IMG/VR virus record: IMGVR_UViG_3300037467_002824
Location: 1 to 64,000 of that record
Reading direction: 5' to 3' (one strand)
DNA length: 64,000 nt
Origin: a virus
The notes beneath the pieces are model-generated. The model made no database searches. It was not told the origin of the DNA and saw only the letters and a list, made by a program, of their open reading frames with translations. Below, one piece after another: positions 35,609 to 39,651 of the stretch. How positions within the stretch are numbered: the stretch's first letter is position 1; each line of letters opens with the position of its first letter. The position numbers were made by a program, and so were the translations under genes.

Positions 35609-35680
35609 TCCAGGGTAGCTCAGCGGCAGAGCGATCGGCTGTTAACCGAATGGTCGTGGGTTCGATCCCCACCCCTGGAG
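35609..35680 (+). tRNA. tRNA-Asn (GTT)
   Basis: Hand fold: acceptor TCCAGGG/CCCTGGA, D stem GCTC/GAGC, anticodon loop CTGTTAA, T arm GTGGG-TTCGATC-CCCAC. CCA is encoded. Confidence 0.85.
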
Positions 35681-35712
35681 CCATCACCAAACGCGCCGGC
35701 GCCTCCAACGCC

Positions 35713-35784
35713 GGATCGTTGGCGTAGCGGCAGCGCACTCGCCTTTTAAGCGATGAGGCGCGGGTTCGATCCCCGCACGATCCA
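35713..35784 (+). tRNA. tRNA-Lys (TTT)
   Basis: Acceptor GGATCGT/ACGATCC, loop CTTTTAA, T arm GCGGG-TTCGATC-CCCGC. CCA is encoded. Confidence 0.8.
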
Positions 35785-35860
35785 CCATGAACACTCACAC
35801 GATGCGAGAACGCGAACAGGATTCCGAGCGGGCATAAGGCCCGCCTCGTTGAGTCCGTTC

Positions 35861-35932
35861 GCCCGCATCGTCTAGTGGCAGGACAGGCCGACTTTCAATC
35901 GGCAGAGCTGGGTTCGATTCCCAGTGCGGGCG
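35861..35932 (+). tRNA. tRNA-Glu (TTC)
   Basis: Acceptor GCCCGCA/TGCGGGC, D stem GTCT/GGAC, loop CTTTCAA, 4-nt variable loop, T arm CTGGG-TTCGATT-CCCAG. One extra nt lies between the D and anticodon stems. CCA is encoded. Confidence 0.75.
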
Positions 35933-35936
35933 CCAC

Positions 35937-36007
35937 GCCTTCGCGCATCGGGTATGCACCACCGGCTGTCTACCGGTCGGTCTGGGGTTCGAGTCCCCTC
36001 GGAGGCG
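35937..36007 (+). tRNA. tRNA-Asp (GTC)-like, atypical D arm
   Basis: Acceptor GCCTTCG/CGGAGGC, loop CTGTCTA (T at position 37), T arm TGGGG-TTCGAGT-CCCCT. The D region is only 17 nt, lacks a canonical U8 and has a GCAT/ATGC mini-stem. Confidence 0.5.
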
Positions 36008-36011
36008 CTAC

Positions 36012-36084
36012 GCGCGCATCGTCTATCGGTCAGGACAGCTGGTTCTCAACTAGCGAAGAGCGGGTTCGATTCCCCTTGCGCGCA
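36012..36084 (+). tRNA. tRNA-Glu (CTC)
   Basis: Acceptor GCGCGCA/TGCGCGC, D stem GTCT/GGAC, loop TTCTCAA, T arm GCGGG-TTCGATT-CCCCT (one mismatch). Confidence 0.7.
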
Positions 36085-36236
36085 TCGCCTTCACGACTAG
36101 GATTCAAGCAGCCATGAAGCTCTCACACACGACCAAGCTGACGCGGTGCCTCGGAGGGGCACTTGCGAGCGGTCGTGTGGGCACGCGACGGCGCTGACAG
36201 CCAGGCGATACGAAGCCTGGCAGCCAGTCCGATTAC

Positions 36237-36311
36237 GTGCCCGTAGCTCAATGGATTAGCAGCGCTGCGCTACGAACGCAGAGGTTGGGGGTTCGAGTCC
36301 CTCCGGGTACG
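36237..36311 (+). tRNA. tRNA-Arg (ACG)
   Basis: Acceptor GTGCCCG/CGGGTAC, loop CTACGAA, T arm GGGGG-TTCGAGT-CCCTC. CCA is encoded. Confidence 0.8.
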
Positions 36312-36315
36312 CCAT

Positions 36316-36387
36316 GCGCTTGTAGCTCAATGGAAGAGCACCGCCCTCCGAAGGCGGGGGCCGCAGGTTCGAGTCCTGTCAGGCGCG
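36316..36387 (+). tRNA. tRNA-Arg (CCG)
   Basis: Acceptor GCGCTTG/CAGGCGC, D stem GCTC/GAGC, loop CTCCGAA, T arm GCAGG-TTCGAGT-CCTGT. Confidence 0.8.
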
Positions 36388-36392
36388 CTACC

Positions 36393-36405
36393 TGAACCGG
36401 GTTCA
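36393..36405. repeat. Palindrome TGAACCGGGTTCA in a tRNA spacer
   Basis: Perfect 13-nt palindrome between tRNA-Arg(CCG) and tRNA-Gly(GCC). The identical 13-mer occurs at 45160-45172. Confidence 0.8.
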
Positions 36406-36410
36406 GATTC

Positions 36411-36482
36411 GCGGGTGTCGCTCAGTGGTAGAGCACCAGCATGCCACGCTGGAATTCGAGGGTTCGATTCCCTTCACCCGCT
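36411..36482 (+). tRNA. tRNA-Gly (GCC)
   Basis: Acceptor GCGGGTG/CACCCGC, D stem GCTC/GAGC, loop ATGCCAC, T arm GAGGG-TTCGATT-CCCTT, discriminator T. Confidence 0.8.
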
Positions 36483-36486
36483 CTTC

Positions 36487-36557
36487 GCGGACGTGGGTCA
36501 TAGGCTGATCTCTGGGTTTCCACCCCAGCTAAGCGAGTTCGAGTCTCGCCGTCCGCT
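36487..36557 (+). tRNA. tRNA-Gly (TCC)
   Basis: Acceptor GCGGACG/CGTCCGC, D stem GGTC/GATC, loop TTTCCAC, T arm GCGAG-TTCGAGT-CTCGC. Confidence 0.8.
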
Positions 36558-36573
36558 CTAAGTAAAGTTTCAC

Positions 36574-36602
36574 TTGCGTATATGTAAAGCCTCCTTTACA
36601 TT
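36574..36602 (+). promoter_or_regulatory. Internal promoter-like element of the tRNA island
   Basis: TTGCGT-N17-TACATT in an AT-rich spacer. It overlaps an 8-bp hairpin ATGTAAAG-CCTC-CTTTACAT. Confidence 0.4.
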
Positions 36603-36607
36603 TCGAT

Positions 36608-36684
36608 TGCGGCGTAGGGAAGTCAGGTCGTTCCCGCTGGCCTCATAAGCCGGAGATCGCAGGTTCAAATCCTGCCGCACGCAA
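36608..36684 (+). tRNA. tRNA with CAT anticodon (Met or Ile2), bulged acceptor stem
   Basis: 5' TGCGGCG pairs with 3' CGC(A)CGCA only if one A is bulged. D stem GGGA/TCCC with an 11-nt loop, anticodon loop CTCATAA, T arm GCAGG-TTCAAAT-CCTGC. Confidence 0.5.
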
Positions 36685-36798
36685 CCAAGCCAATGAACGC
36701 GTACATCGACATCACCCCGTGCCTATCGCTGGAGCAGTTGCTTAGCGGCGCCGGGGCGTTGTTGCGTGTGTAAACACACGACCCCGGCAGCAAGCTTC

Positions 36799-36880
36799 GG
36801 CCGGGTGGCGTAATGGAAGCCGCGCTGCGTTCAGACCGCAGTGTCCTTGTGACGTAGGGGTTCGACTCCCCTCCCGGCCA
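36799..36880 (+). tRNA. tRNA-Leu (CAG)
   Basis: Acceptor GGCCGGG/CCCGGCC, loop TTCAGAC, long variable arm, T arm AGGGG-TTCGACT-CCCCT. Confidence 0.8.
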
Positions 36881-36884
36881 CTCT

Positions 36885-36967
36885 CCGTGAGTGGCGTAAT
36901 GGCAGCCGCGCCAGCCTGAGTAGCTGGTGCCCGAAAGGGCGTGCAGGTTCGACTCCTGTCTCACGGA
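36885..36967 (+). tRNA. tRNA-Leu (GAG)
   Basis: Acceptor CCGTGAG/CTCACGG, loop CTGAGTA, variable arm GCCC-GAAA-GGGC, T arm GCAGG-TTCGACT-CCTGT. Confidence 0.75.
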
Positions 36968-36971
36968 CTAC

Positions 36972-37052
36972 GGCCTCGTGGTGAAACGGAAGACGCGCCC
37001 GGTTCAAACCCGGGTACCTACGGGTGTGAGAGTTCGAATCTCTCCGGGGCCA
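36972..37052 (+). tRNA. tRNA-Leu (CAA)
   Basis: Acceptor GGCCTCG/CGGGGCC, loop TTCAAAC, long variable arm, T arm GAGAG-TTCGAAT-CTCTC. Confidence 0.8.
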
Positions 37053-37069
37053 CTAAATTCACTGCCGAC

Positions 37070-37098
37070 TTGCATTTCGTTTTCACCCCTTCTATACT
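37070..37098 (+). promoter_or_regulatory. Internal sigma70-like promoter of the tRNA island
   Basis: TTGCAT-N17-TATACT, 31 nt upstream of tRNA-Ser(GCT). This is the best consensus match in the window. Confidence 0.55.
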
Positions 37099-37128
37099 GA
37101 CCCTCGTGAACCTCATGGATCACAATTT

Positions 37129-37215
37129 GGAGCATTGCCAGAGCGGCCGATTGGGCACGCCTGCTAAGCGTGCGGTGTCGCAAGGCACCCCTGCGTTCGA
37201 ATCGCAGATGCTCCG
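37129..37215 (+). tRNA. tRNA-Ser (GCT)
   Basis: Acceptor GGAGCAT/ATGCTCC, loop CTGCTAA, long variable arm, T arm CTGCG-TTCGAAT-CGCAG. Confidence 0.8.
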
Positions 37216-37323
37216 CTCGTGGTGTGTCATTACGACGACCACGAGCAGTCCGAAGCAGTTCAAGTCATCGCGCTCCTGAATCACTAGCTGTCCAAGACAT
37301 CGCCGTCTCGGACGGCGAATTCT

Positions 37324-37410
37324 GGAGCGGTGTCAGAGAGTGGTTTATTCCGGCGGTCTCGAAAATCGTCACACCTTCGGGTGTCGTGGGTTCGAATCCC
37401 ACCCGCTCCT
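37324..37410 (+). tRNA. tRNA-Ser (CGA)
   Basis: Acceptor GGAGCGG/CCGCTCC, loop CTCGAAA, variable arm CACACC-TTCG-GGTGTC, T arm GTGGG-TTCGAAT-CCCAC. CCA is encoded. Confidence 0.8.
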
Positions 37411-37493
37411 CCAGGAATACGATGAACACGTTGAGCAACACGATCCTGCGTCTGAAGCCCGGCCCCGAGGGAGAACCTCGGGAGCTGTTGCTT

Positions 37494-37566
37494 CCGGTCG
37501 TAGCTCAACTGGCAGAGCAAGCCCCTCTTAAGGGCGAGGTTGCGGGATCGTTGCCCGCCGACCGGA
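37494..37566 (+). tRNA. tRNA-Lys (CTT), unusual T loop
   Basis: Acceptor CCGGTCG/CGACCGG, D stem GCTC/GAGC, loop CTCTTAA, T arm GCGGG-ATCGTTG-CCCGC (A54/T58 instead of T54/A58). Confidence 0.65.
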
Positions 37567-37575
37567 CTGATGAAC

Positions 37576-37647
37576 GCGCGCGTGGTCTAATGGCTGGGCA
37601 CCTGGTTTACACCCAGGCTCATGGAGGTTCGATCCCTTCCGCGCGTA
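37576..37647 (+). tRNA. tRNA-Val (TAC)
   Basis: Acceptor GCGCGCG/CGCGCGT (G1.T72 wobble), D stem GTCT/GGGC, loop TTTACAC, T arm GGAGG-TTCGATC-CCTTC. Confidence 0.75.
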
Positions 37648-37685
37648 CCGGCAATCGAATGTGCACGCGAGTCGTCACAGTCGTC

Positions 37686-37752
37686 GCCGGTGTGAAGGTC
37701 AAGTCGATCTCTCATAAGGATCTGGCGGCGGGTTCGAGTCCCGCCACCGGCA
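37686..37752 (+). tRNA. tRNA-like with CAT anticodon and a reduced D arm
   Basis: Acceptor GCCGGTG/CACCGGC, loop CTCATAA, T arm GCGGG-TTCGAGT-CCCGC, CCA encoded. Only 13 nt (TGAAGGTCAAGTC) lie between the acceptor and anticodon stems. Total length 67 nt. Confidence 0.45.
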
Positions 37753-37787
37753 CCAATCGAAGGCCGAGAGAGCTGAATTGAAGCTCT

Positions 37788-37860
37788 CTCGGTGTAGCTC
37801 ACAAGGACGAGCAGCGGCGTTCTAATCCGCAGGAAGTCGGTTCGAATCCGACCACCGAGA
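37788..37860 (+). tRNA. tRNA-Arg (TCT)
   Basis: Acceptor CTCGGTG/CACCGAG, D stem GCTC/GAGC, loop GTTCTAA, T arm GTCGG-TTCGAAT-CCGAC. CCA is encoded. Confidence 0.75.
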
Positions 37861-37940
37861 CCAAGAAGATGAACCTCACGCGCACCACCACTACGACCGC
37901 CACTCGAACGCGAACAACGCGTTCGGTGGCAGCTGTATGT

Positions 37941-38013
37941 GCTGGTGTAGCTCGATTGGAAGAGCACTCGCCTTGTAAGCGAGAGACAGCGGGTTCGAAT
38001 CCCGTCACCAGCT
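37941..38013 (+). tRNA. tRNA-Thr (TGT)
   Basis: Acceptor GCTGGTG/CACCAGC, D stem GCTC/GAGC, loop CTTGTAA, T arm GCGGG-TTCGAAT-CCCGT. CCA is encoded. Confidence 0.85.
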
Positions 38014-38018
38014 CCAAC

Positions 38019-38091
38019 GCTGGTGAAGCACGTTTGGACGTGCACCCGCATGGTAAGCGGGAGGCAGTGGGTTCGAATCCCATCACCAGCT
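38019..38091 (+). tRNA. tRNA-Thr (GGT)
   Basis: Acceptor GCTGGTG/CACCAGC, D stem GCAC/GTGC, loop ATGGTAA, T arm GTGGG-TTCGAAT-CCCAT. CCA is encoded. Confidence 0.85.
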
Positions 38092-38096
38092 CCAAC

Positions 38097-38169
38097 GCCG
38101 GTGAGGCTCATGTGGATGAGCGCTGCACTCGTAACGCAGACTCAACGGGTTCGACTCCCGTCACCGGCT
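38097..38169 (+). tRNA. tRNA-Thr (CGT)
   Basis: Acceptor GCCGGTG/CACCGGC, D stem GCTC/GAGC, loop CTCGTAA, T arm ACGGG-TTCGACT-CCCGT. CCA is encoded. Confidence 0.8.
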
Positions 38170-38241
38170 CCAAGACCATGATGAACAAGAGCACGCCCCT
38201 CATTACCAACGCCTGCGAGTCGCTCGCAGGCAGCGGTGTAT

Positions 38242-38313
38242 GCGTGGGTAGCTCAATGGTAGAGCACTCGACCGATAATCGAGAGACGATGGGTTCGATC
38301 CCCGCCCCACGTA
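38242..38313 (+). tRNA. tRNA-Ile (GAT), C at position 33
   Basis: Acceptor GCGTGGG/CCCACGT (G1.T72), D stem GCTC/GAGC, loop CCGATAA, T arm ATGGG-TTCGATC-CCCGC (mismatched). CCA is encoded. Confidence 0.65.
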
Positions 38314-38357
38314 CCATGGGAGTTCTGGATCACTTTACCGCCGGCGCCTTCGCGTCT

Positions 38358-38431
38358 GCCGGTGAAGCTGACATGGTGACTAGCGCTCCCCTGAAGAGGG
38401 AGAGGAGTCCGTTCGATTCGGACCTCCGGCA
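38358..38431 (+). tRNA. tRNA-Phe (GAA)
   Basis: Acceptor GCCGGTG/CTCCGGC (one T.T mismatch), loop CTGAAGA, T arm GTCCG-TTCGATT-CGGAC. Confidence 0.7.
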
Positions 38432-38470
38432 CCTCGGTCCTCTTTGGCGACCCTTCGACGTATCCCGCAT

Positions 38471-38539
38471 GCGGGTACGCGCTGGGCGCCGTGCGAACTC
38501 CAAATCCGCTACGCGTCGGTTCGATTCCGACTACCCGTG
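38471..38539 (+). tRNA. tRNA-Trp (CCA), short D region
   Basis: Acceptor GCGGGTA/TACCCGT (G1.T72), loop CTCCAAA, T arm GTCGG-TTCGATT-CCGAC, CCA encoded. The D region is only 15 nt. Total length 69 nt. Confidence 0.55.
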
Positions 38540-38588
38540 CCATCATCTGCAGCAACCCGAGCAGCGCCCGTAACTGGGTCCACTGTAT

Positions 38589-38661
38589 TCGGGGATAGCT
38601 CAATTGGCAGAGCGGCGGCCTCTGACGTCGTTGGTTGAAGGTTCGACTCCTTCTCCCCGAG
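38589..38661 (+). tRNA. tRNA-Gln (CTG)
   Basis: Acceptor TCGGGGA/TCCCCGA (U1-A72, as in bacterial tRNA-Gln), D stem GCTC/GAGC, loop CTCTGAC, T arm GAAGG-TTCGACT-CCTTC. Confidence 0.8.
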
Positions 38662-38666
38662 CTAAT

Positions 38667-38739
38667 TCGGGAGTCGTCTAATTGGCAGGACACCCGCCTT
38701 TGAAGCGGGCCGGTGCGGGTTCGAGTCCCTCCTCCCGAG
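38667..38739 (+). tRNA. tRNA-Gln (TTG)
   Basis: Acceptor TCGGGAG/CTCCCGA, D stem GTCT/GGAC, loop CTTTGAA, T arm GCGGG-TTCGAGT-CCCTC. CCA is encoded. Confidence 0.8.
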
Positions 38740-38743
38740 CCAC

Positions 38744-38771
38744 TTGTATATCGTCTGAACTGGGTTACACT
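38744..38771 (+). promoter_or_regulatory. Internal promoter-like element of the tRNA island
   Basis: TTGTAT-N16-TACACT directly after tRNA-Gln(TTG). It lies 12 nt upstream of a 35-codon ORF (38784-38891) and 157 nt upstream of tRNA-Pro. Confidence 0.4.
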
Positions 38772-38928
38772 CTGGAAGTCATCATGAAGCGCTCGCACCA
38801 CATCGCAGCCCTGTTCGCCGCCGCCAAGGCGTGCGACGCGGCGGTGTATCGAGCGCCCGGCGCCCCGCAGCCTACCGTCGCTGGTCTCTGAGCTTCGCTC
38901 AGACCCAGCTGCAAACGACGGATGATTG

Positions 38929-39002
38929 CTGGGCGTAGCGAAGACAGGTATCGCGCTGCTTTCGGGAAGCAGAGATCGCAGGTTCGAGTCCTGCCGCCCA
39001 GA
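38929..39002 (+). tRNA. tRNA-Pro (CGG)
   Basis: Acceptor CTGGGCG/CGCCCAG, D stem GCGA/TCGC, loop TTCGGGA, T arm GCAGG-TTCGAGT-CCTGC. CCA is encoded. Confidence 0.85.
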
Positions 39003-39006
39003 CCAT

Positions 39007-39078
39007 CGGAGAGTAGCCGAATGGTTAGGCGCCTGATTTGGGATCAGGAAAGCGCAGGTTCGATTCCTGTCTCTCCGA
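39007..39078 (+). tRNA. tRNA-Pro (TGG)
   Basis: Acceptor CGGAGAG/CTCTCCG, loop TTTGGGA, T arm GCAGG-TTCGATT-CCTGT. Confidence 0.8.
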
Positions 39079-39087
39079 CTAGTACAC

Positions 39088-39158
39088 GGGCTCGTAGCTC
39101 AATGGGAGAGCTGCCGGTTTGCACCCGGCCGATGGGGGTTCGATTCCTCTCGGGTCCA
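39088..39158 (+). tRNA. tRNA-Ala (TGC)
   Basis: Acceptor GGGCTCG/CGGGTCC with the G3.T70 Ala identity pair, D stem GCTC/GAGC, loop TTTGCAC, T arm GGGGG-TTCGATT-CCTCT. Confidence 0.8.
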
Positions 39159-39168
39159 CTGAATTCTC

Positions 39169-39196
39169 TTGCATCCTGTTTGAAACACGCTAGGCT
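39169..39196 (+). promoter_or_regulatory. Internal promoter-like element of the tRNA island
   Basis: TTGCAT-N16-TAGGCT, 76 nt upstream of tRNA-Tyr. Confidence 0.35.
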
Positions 39197-39271
39197 ATTC
39201 ACGTGATCCTCACTCATTGTCATCGCCATTCGTATTGAGCGCCTCGGGCTGGCGGCCCGATAGACGCATAC

Positions 39272-39354
39272 GTGGCGGTGTACCCGAGTGGGATGGGCTC
39301 TGACTGTAGATCAGAGGGCTTTTGCCAGAGCAGGTTCGATTCCTGCCCGCCACA
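39272..39354 (+). tRNA. tRNA-Tyr (GTA)
   Basis: Acceptor GTGGCGG/CCGCCAC, loop CTGTAGA, long variable arm, T arm GCAGG-TTCGATT-CCTGC. Confidence 0.8.
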
Positions 39355-39356
39355 CT

Positions 39357-39428
39357 TTGATCGAGCACGAAGAGTCGAGTGGGAAGGCTGTGAACCTTCA
39401 GAAGCGGGTGCGAGTCCCGTCGATCAAC
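39357..39428 (+). tRNA. tRNA-His (GTG), unusual T loop
   Basis: Acceptor TTGATCG/CGATCAA, loop CTGTGAA, T arm GCGGG-TGCGAGT-CCCGT (G at position 55). No encoded G-1 pairs with C73. Confidence 0.6.
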
Positions 39429-39651
39429 CCAATATCATTCCTGCATGCGTGAGAAAATCCGTGAGCTACTTCGCCCTCTCGTTCCCTATCTGTACATCCT
39501 GTTGCTGTTGATCAGCGGCTGCATCGGGTGGGCGCTCCATGAAGCGCGTCACCCCTGATGTGCCCGAGGGTGAAGAGGCCGAACCACCGGATTGCAACCC
39601 CGGTCCAAGCCGGTTCAAGACCGGCCGGGCACTCCGCTATATGATTGACGC

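Follow-up and report, generated by a model that had tools for sequence, protein, structure and literature searches.

Long runs of tRNA genes are known from phages, as tRNA clusters, and from bacteria, as long tRNA arrays (L-arrays). According to the published accounts, they contain dozens of dense same-strand tRNA genes that are supernumerary to the host set, they are spread horizontally, and L-arrays encode functional tRNAs (Santamaria-Gomez et al. 2021, PMC8421152; see also Morgado and Vicente 2018-2019, PMC5966550, PMC6409571). Phage tRNAs with anticodon-loop changes at nuclease sites have also been described (van den Berg et al. 2023, PMC10264068), and T5 tRNAs act against retron and PARIS (PMC11555353, PMC11464382). 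Here we analyzed a tRNA island located in the first 64 kb (hereafter the window) of IMGVR_UViG_3300037467_002824, a 191,199-bp soil virus record with direct terminal repeats that is rated complete. The island (35609-39633, + strand) comprises 33 same-strand tRNA genes in 4.0 kb, about half of them with an encoded CCA, and is the kind of long, dense, same-strand run on a viral genome that defines phage tRNA clusters and L-arrays. Unlike what is related in the L-array accounts as far as consulted (PMC8421152, PMC5966550, PMC6409571), where we did not find such a feature described, the island shows recurrent departures from universal tRNA positions.

These departures were first listed in a sequence-only reading, which considered the deviant members to be either decaying pseudogenes or deliberately altered tRNAs. 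The island has 33 tRNA genes rather than 32, as a Cys(GCA) gene was found at 39560-39633, and with this addition all 20 amino acids are covered. ARAGORN detected 29 of them, all + strand and within 35609-39355, and thus misses four of the 33, while the Rfam model RF00005 misses six at default settings. The gathering cut-off of this model (29 bits) was reached by 27 genes with default filters and, only with lax filters, by the second of two tRNA(CAU) genes (37.4 bits) and by Cys (37.3 bits on a short slice). It was not reached by Asp (21.4 bits), by Trp and Ser(GCU), for which there was no hit, or by a His-like gene (no hit at E<=10). All eight structural oddities listed earlier are present, as judged from the sequence, the ARAGORN structures and minimum-energy folds. 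The minimum-energy folds of Asp, tRNA(CAU) number 1, Trp, Lys and His are the same as the cloverleaves drawn by hand, and automated methods produced no canonical alternative fold. Further oddities were not in the earlier list: A8 in Thr(GGT), Thr(CGT) and Phe(GAA), T49xT65 in Asp, and the Cys(GCA) gene itself.

On balance, the flagged genes are probably working members of a phage-borne set, itself part of a lineage of long arrays that spreads horizontally and is present as clusters in phages and as L-arrays in bacteria. As judged by sequence comparison, the variants are conserved, compensated and recurrent, and most of them are not signs of decay. Covariation across related phages, proposed earlier as a check, was found as compensatory changes in Trp, tRNA(CAU) number 2, the His-like gene and the Ile gene with C33. 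In these four cases the cloverleaf is kept through the changes, as is expected of functional tRNAs, and the broken stems or lost constraint expected of pseudogenes were not seen in Trp, His, tRNA(CAU) number 2, Ile or Val. The pseudogene proposal is therefore not supported for Trp, the 67-nt tRNA(CAU), His and the C33 Ile, nor for U37 of Asp, G1.U72 of Val and Trp, and the A54/U58 T loop, all of which are compensated in orthologues or recurrent. Decay may have affected the bulged tRNA(CAU) number 1 and the D arm of Asp, which is compact and has C8, since their orthologues in the uncultured phage LR745208.1 are regular at those points. The other proposal, that of deliberately altered tRNAs, stands only in the sense that the variants appear to be kept by selection, as suggested by their conservation, compensation and recurrence.

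The comparison relies on relatives and on five metagenome arrays. The 308-aa protein flanking the island has six relatives in 5.8 billion proteins, and three of these are on array-bearing contigs. One such contig, of 99.9 kb (L018, 308-aa protein 66% identical), has, at the corresponding site, a small array with Leu, Asn, Pro, Lys(CTT), Gln and Tyr as well as Trp and His-like genes missed by ARAGORN. Another (L021, 60% identical) has an array of Leu, Ser, Val, Thr and Ile tRNAs with an HNH-like ORF inside; interruption by such a homing-endonuclease-like ORF is a further likeness to L-arrays. This ORF (8330-8780 of L021) shows, by eye, an HNH-type Cys/His pattern that recalls the homing endonucleases of tRNA arrays. 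The third relative, LR745208.1 (485 kb), has the sole colinear array in the phage collection. Its order is CAT, Lys, Glu-Asp-Glu, Arg, Gly, Ser, Lys-Val-CAT-Arg, Thr x3, Ile-Phe-Trp-Gln-Gln, Pro, Ala, Tyr-(Cys)-His, and colinearity with the island extends from Glu-Asp-Glu through Tyr-His. This array (L028/L029, 141808-191412) is split by inserted gene blocks over about 50 kb. In LR745208.1 the Trp, Ile, His and Thr-GGU tRNAs have ATCGT-type (A54/U58) T loops, and one Lys-like gene has a four-base anticodon (ttta) according to ARAGORN.

The tRNA-Trp(CCA) gene (38471-38542 including CCA, + strand) has a body (38471-38539) of 69 nt and a D region of 15 nt, as had been noticed earlier. This D region consists of a 4-bp stem, a 3-nt loop and a 3-nt linker; G1.U72, C8 and an A.C mismatch in the anticodon stem are also present. 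In all three phages the D region of Trp is 15 nt long. Paired cells amount to 95% in the alignment, 11/21 pairs show compensatory changes, and none of 500 shuffles was as good (0/500). Even the D hairpin covaries, from GCGC/GCGC to GTGC/GCAC (C-G to U-A) between orthologues. The G1.U72 pair is retained in L018 and is G-C in LR745208.1. Trp and Asp share an unusual plan, in which a single base separates the acceptor stem from a D stem of 4 bp, with a loop of 3-5 nt containing GG and then a 3-nt linker.

A different reduction is found in tRNA(CAU) number 2 (37686-37755, + strand), which is 67 nt long (37686-37752) plus CCA and has a 13-nt connector between the acceptor and anticodon stems in place of the D arm, in agreement with the hand fold. 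Its orthologue in LR745208.1 is also 67 nt long with a 13-nt connector, and all three stem differences between the two are compensatory. Short or stem-rich D regions such as these (Trp 15, Asp 17, CAU 13 nt) resemble those of D-arm-reduced mitochondrial tRNAs and tRNA-Sec's D arm (reviewed in PMC7609411). Unlike the mitochondrial tRNAs and tRNA-Sec, the island tRNAs are encoded by a phage infecting bacteria and have a normal T arm and variable region; unlike in tRNA-Sec, the anticodons are CCA, GUC and CAU rather than UCA, and there is no long variable arm. The Rfam tRNA-Sec model gave the sole hits to the Trp genes; these were weak and, with the anticodon CCA and no long variable arm, an identity of Trp with tRNA-Sec was ruled out. 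An initiator function was ruled out for both CAU genes, which lack a C1xA72 mismatch and a GGG/CCC anticodon stem; each is a candidate tRNA-Met or tRNA-Ile2. An A+T-rich type of phage tRNA(CAU) is widespread (L095, L099, L110, L142 and about 20 other IMG/VR loci). It combines G1.U72 with a D region of 15-16 nt, in which a 4-bp stem directly 3' of the acceptor carries a TGGT loop and is followed by a 3-nt linker, and is like the compact forms of the island.

The His-like gene (tRNA-His(GUG)-like, 39357-39431, + strand) is not recognized by general tRNA models, and its status as a tRNA gene rests on covariation. As described earlier, the T loop (gene body 39357-39428) is TGCGAGT (UGCGAGU in the RNA, hence G55) and there is no G at -1; we add that the base at -1 is T, that C73 is followed by CCA, that the D loop lacks GG and that the acceptor branch can be drawn as 7/5 or 8/4. 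It was not found by ARAGORN even at -ps80, nor by RF00005 at E<=10 even on a 321-nt slice. When the gene is compared with its L018 counterpart, 5/5 stem differences are compensatory. No match to the His pattern was obtained in IMG/VR, and a metagenome scan gave five further members, each in a dense tRNA array and none of them called by ARAGORN. In the resulting family (n=7), 49/49 acceptor, 35/35 anticodon-stem and 28/28 T-stem cells are paired, with 2-4 pair types per position, and the anticodon GUG, C73 and U-1 are present in 7/7 members. The two-sequence covariation tests are weak alone (15/500 and 54/500 shuffles were as good) and gain weight because of the added family members and the absence of disruptive changes.

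The T loop of the His-like gene obeys a rule seen in a wider pool of phage tRNAs. In a pool of 1966 unique ARAGORN-detected phage tRNAs, taken from 2 Mb of IMG/VR loci chosen by pattern searches, 24 have a G55 T loop and 23/24 of these have AG and no GG in the D loop, whereas with U55 the D loop contains GG in 1890/1948 (97%). The His-like gene combines G55 with an AG D loop in the same way (G55/A18). It is this configuration that makes general tRNA models reject the gene and, as the rule is obeyed, the tertiary core can be argued to be intact. A class of (8/4) tRNA-His without G-1 and with A73 or U73 has been described from phage tRNA clusters (Mukai et al. 2017, PMC5389517). The present family resembles that class in that it occurs in phage arrays and lacks G-1 (U-1 in 7/7). 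It differs by its discriminator, C73 in 7/7 rather than A73 or U73, and by the added feature of the G55 T loop with an AG D loop. Pair 8:65 of the 8/4 fold is AU in five members, GC in one and AC in one, so that 8/4 can be drawn in 6/7, and the rival pair 49:65 of the 7/5 fold (GU in five, GC in two) fits equally well. For the extra 8/4 pair there is thus one A-U to G-C covariation in favor and one A.C mismatch against. With C73 throughout and a 7/5 fold with G.U fitting equally, we did not file the family in the (8/4) class. The absence of G-1 is in itself common, being seen in 26/65 (40%) of the phage tRNA-His in the pool.

Recurrence is also seen for the tRNA-Ile(GAU) gene (38242-38313, + strand), which indeed has C33 (anticodon loop CCGATAA) and G1.U72. 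The anticodon arm including C33 is identical in LR745208.1. The same 17-nt arm is present in 62 IMG/VR contigs, in about 60 of which it belongs to tRNAs that are quite dissimilar in their acceptor, D and T arms; its U33 twin is present in 103 contigs. An alignment of 48 C33 sequences shows a standard cloverleaf with compensatory double changes in 17/21 pairs. At loci that were not selected for Ile, 6/22 Ile(GAU) tRNAs have C33. The arm was also found in 84 bacterial genome contigs, and in 45/84 of these loci at least five tRNAs lie within 8 kb. All 15 such bacterial loci examined (15/15) are long tRNA arrays without rRNA, many of them in metagenome-assembled genomes of Acidobacteriota. The Ile(C33) type of the window is housed in arrays of this kind in both phages and soil bacteria. 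The bacterial long arrays have the same variant repertoire as the phages, with C33 in 14% of their tRNAs. Among the bacterial loci (L163-L246), 24 have at least 15 tRNAs in 8 kb, and the hosts include Pyrinomonadaceae, Bryobacterales, Akkermansiaceae, Steroidobacteraceae, Pseudomonas nitroreducens and others.

A second isotype-specific change is U37 in tRNA-Asp(GUC) (35937-36007, + strand, no CCA), where the T at position 37 reported earlier was confirmed in the anticodon loop CTGTCTA. A pyrimidine at position 37 occurs in 38/1966 tRNAs of the pool and 32 of these 38 are Asp, i.e. 32/77 (42%) of all Asp. The arm CCGG-CTGTCTA-CCGG is shared with about 35 other phage Asp tRNAs among 77 IMG/VR contigs, several of which have similarly compact D hairpins. 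In the Asp gene itself the D region is 17 nt long and without U8, as first seen by hand; it has C8, a hairpin GCAT-CGGGT-ATGC (4 bp, 5-nt loop) and a linker ACC (3 nt). The T stem contains the U49xU65 mismatch. The T loop ATCGTTG of tRNA-Lys(CUU) (37494-37566, + strand), in which A54 and U58 are swapped, is likewise real (AUCGUUG in the RNA). This type of loop is found in 76/1966 (3.9%) of the pool and in 54/178 loci, and the two positions covary strictly (TA 1850, AT 76, TT 0). The G1.U72 pair described for Val, Ile and Trp is found in tRNA-Val(UAC) (37576-37647, + strand) as well as in the Val(TAC) of L021; it is present in 13% of the pool and in 28/54 (52%) of Val(UAC). Two tRNA-Thr genes, Thr(GGU) and Thr(CGU) (38019-38169, + strand), have A8 and a 5-bp D stem closing positions 14:21, and tRNA-Phe(GAA) (38358-38431, + strand) also has A8; its anticodon arm is identical in LR745208.1. 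Overall, non-U8 occurs in 12% of the pool and mismatched 1:72 pairs in 2-3%. The share of such traits in the window is about the average for phage arrays, and the cluster is therefore ordinary in that context. By textbook tRNA rules, the traits of the window are far from those expected of cellular tRNAs.

Several observations weigh against regarding all these genes as working and selected. The compact C8 D arm of Asp, the bulge of tRNA(CAU) number 1, A8 and the A54/U58 loop of Lys are missing in the nearest orthologues, as would be seen under drift. In LR745208.1 the positional orthologue of Asp is canonical (U8, A37) with a regular D arm, U8 is present in Thr and Phe, and the orthologue of tRNA(CAU) number 1 has no extra base, but it has U1xU72 and G2.U71. 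The Lys(CTT) of L018 has the canonical T loop TTCGACT. As L018 carries only eight tRNAs at the site, most of the island is dispensable. The loci of the 1966-tRNA pool were picked by pattern searches and de-replicated by identity only, and counts made in it are not counts of independent events. The pipeline was applied to tRNAs of phages and arrays only, the rules for cellular tRNAs being those of general knowledge. Finally, the genome itself gives no pointer to tRNA warfare: no gene for Thg1, a CCA-adding enzyme, TilS, RtcB or peptidyl-tRNA hydrolase (Pth) was found when the genome was searched for such repair and maturation functions.

If the genes are working members of a mobile set, their architecture could be understood as follows. 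Near-universal positions are replaced by alternatives that would keep the L-shape: G55/A18 for U55/G18, A54/U58 for T54/A58, short D hairpins with a GG or AG loop, G1.U72, and a tRNA-His without encoded G-1. Superimposed on these are changes of the anticodon loop that are specific to an isotype, namely C33 for Ile(GAU) and U37 for Asp(GUC). Transcription could start from promoters inside the island, and the transcripts would be cleaved by RNase P (U at -1) and charged by host synthetases. During infection, the altered loops and stem ends may be poor substrates for the tRNA-cutting or tRNA-modifying enzymes of the host, and translation of phage genes would thereby continue. Evasion of host tRNA-cutting defences is our leading, inferred explanation for the persistence of the variants. 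Ile C33 and Asp U37 fit the published proposal of escape from anticodon nucleases (PMC10264068). As in the nuclease-insensitive phage tRNAs of that study, they are changes in the anticodon loop, here seen in the sequence and specific to an isotype; unlike there, many deviations of the island lie outside the anticodon loop, and C33 and U37 were not found mentioned in the paper. Our literature search turned up no account of phage tRNAs with Ile-C33, Asp-U37 or A54/U58, which does not prove that there is none. Against further enzymes that target tRNAs, the changes at the acceptor end and in the T loop could act in the same way, or they could be tolerated drift. A bolder version, which we offer tentatively and consider doubtful as it stands, is that phage clusters and L-arrays share a "mobile dialect" of tRNA architecture (Ile C33, Asp U37, A54:U58, G55:A18, compact D hairpins, G1.U72 and tRNA-His with C73 and without G-1) that would have been selected to hide from immune nucleases and modifiers with decoding left intact.

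Part of the set could have decayed. The tRNA(CAU) number 1 gene (36608-36687, + strand) has U1-A72 and, as claimed earlier, its acceptor stem requires a bulged A (body 36608-36684). This base lies in the 3' strand (TGCGGCG opposite CGC-A-CGCA), also in the minimum-energy fold; ARAGORN detected the gene only when its threshold was lowered, and then with a poorer fold. The bulge, like Asp's compact D arm with C8, could reflect true damage and not design. It is possible, if on the unlikely side, that these two genes are non-functional and all others intact. The LR745208.1 orthologues are free of these defects, Asp has its low RF00005 score together with a T-stem mismatch and no U8, and the presence of a second CAU tRNA would make loss of the first tolerable. 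Yet all the other stems of both genes are perfectly paired and both fold as cloverleaves. Moreover, tRNA(CAU) number 1 reaches 49 bits in RF00005 (36609-36683) with an encoded CCA directly after A73, and Asp has an anticodon arm identical to the widespread phage Asp(U37) type and is the sole Asp gene in an otherwise 20-amino-acid set.

Alternatively, constraint may simply be relaxed: array tRNAs would only supplement the host set, and neutral or mildly harmful variants would be tolerated with no role in counter-defence. This explanation, which we regard as rather unlikely, accounts for the traits confined to one lineage (the Asp D arm, the tRNA(CAU) number 1 bulge, A8 in Thr and Phe, the Lys T loop), for the general frequencies of non-U8 and mismatched 1:72 pairs in phage tRNAs, and for island content that differs greatly among relatives. 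It does not predict, however, that U37 is nearly confined to Asp and C33 concentrated in Ile, that identical anticodon arms sit on tRNAs whose other arms have fully diverged, or that positions 54/58 and 55/18 are so strictly coupled. It is very improbable that some deviant members have a non-decoding role, serving as decoys for, or inhibitors of, defence proteins that target tRNAs, or as regulators resembling tRNAs. The clearest candidates would be the 67-nt CAU RNA and the His-like RNA, the latter belonging to a family invisible to the general tRNA model and lacking the main HisRS identity element yet keeping C73, and the literature reports irregular tRNAs that are charged yet unused in translation (PMC5389517). 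Against such a role, His and Trp have one gene each in a set whose anticodons account for all 20 amino acids, the anticodon stems and loops show the conservation found in decoding tRNAs, and the frequent lack of G-1 among ARAGORN-detected phage His tRNAs speaks for a common decoding solution.

Should the variants work, then U33, purine 37, T54-A58, G18-U55 and the G-1 of tRNA-His, all held to be universal, would have natural alternatives that spread on mobile elements. Ile C33 and Asp U37 would be concrete candidates for the escape of phage tRNAs from tRNA-cutting defences and, again if the variants work, natural templates for the design of orthogonal tRNAs. It would also follow that the His family and the compact Trp and CAU tRNAs are systematically missed by ARAGORN and Rfam and that phage tRNA repertoires are under-counted. 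If the variants are tolerated drift, they would provide a baseline for ordinary deviation in phage arrays.

A small ORF downstream of His precedes the additional tRNA-Cys(GCA) gene (39560-39633, + strand), which was missed by ARAGORN and default Rfam. It has A8, an A31xC39 mismatch, U73 and no CCA. We assign it to Cys because of the anticodon GCA and U73; it scored 41.6 bits in R1, a covariance model derived from the His-like family. Its fold z-score was -2.65, a type of score that is uninformative here as canonical control tRNAs were no better than deviant ones. Orthology with the Cys of LR745208.1 could not be demonstrated.

Three promoter-like sequences are located within the island on the + strand: TTGCGT-N17-TACATT (36574-36602), which ends 5 nt before tRNA(CAU) number 1, TTGCAT-N17-TATACT (37070-37098) upstream of Ser(GCU), and TTGCAT-N16-TAGGCT (39169-39196) upstream of Tyr-His-Cys. 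The pattern TTGCRT-N16-17-TANNNT has three matches in the 64-kb window, all in the A+T-richer spacers of the island (the phage has 61% G+C), versus 0.41 expected, the pattern having been chosen post hoc from the same sequences in which it was counted. A scan of the island for consensus promoters and terminators found none.

Regarding the neighbouring genes, the upstream 308-aa protein had no hit in IMG/VR and a 536-aa neighbour had no tblastn hit in the phage collection. Loci carrying the downstream exonuclease (L001-L017) have no tRNA array. A search of sequencing runs matched the stretch only in DNA contigs of soil and rhizosphere metagenomes, with no RNA run among those listed. Four partly matching DNA contigs contained only phage-identical fragments and unrelated tRNAs of other organisms, with no strain variation, and the island sequence is identical in a second assembly (L023). 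Outside the window, ARAGORN detected a one-piece tmRNA gene with the tag peptide ANDNATASPALLAA (genome C1, 80078-80436, - strand). The larger spacers of the island contain short ORFs on the + strand (36115-36197, 38785-38891 and 39446-39558), of which the last would encode a 37-aa peptide that is hydrophobic by eye.

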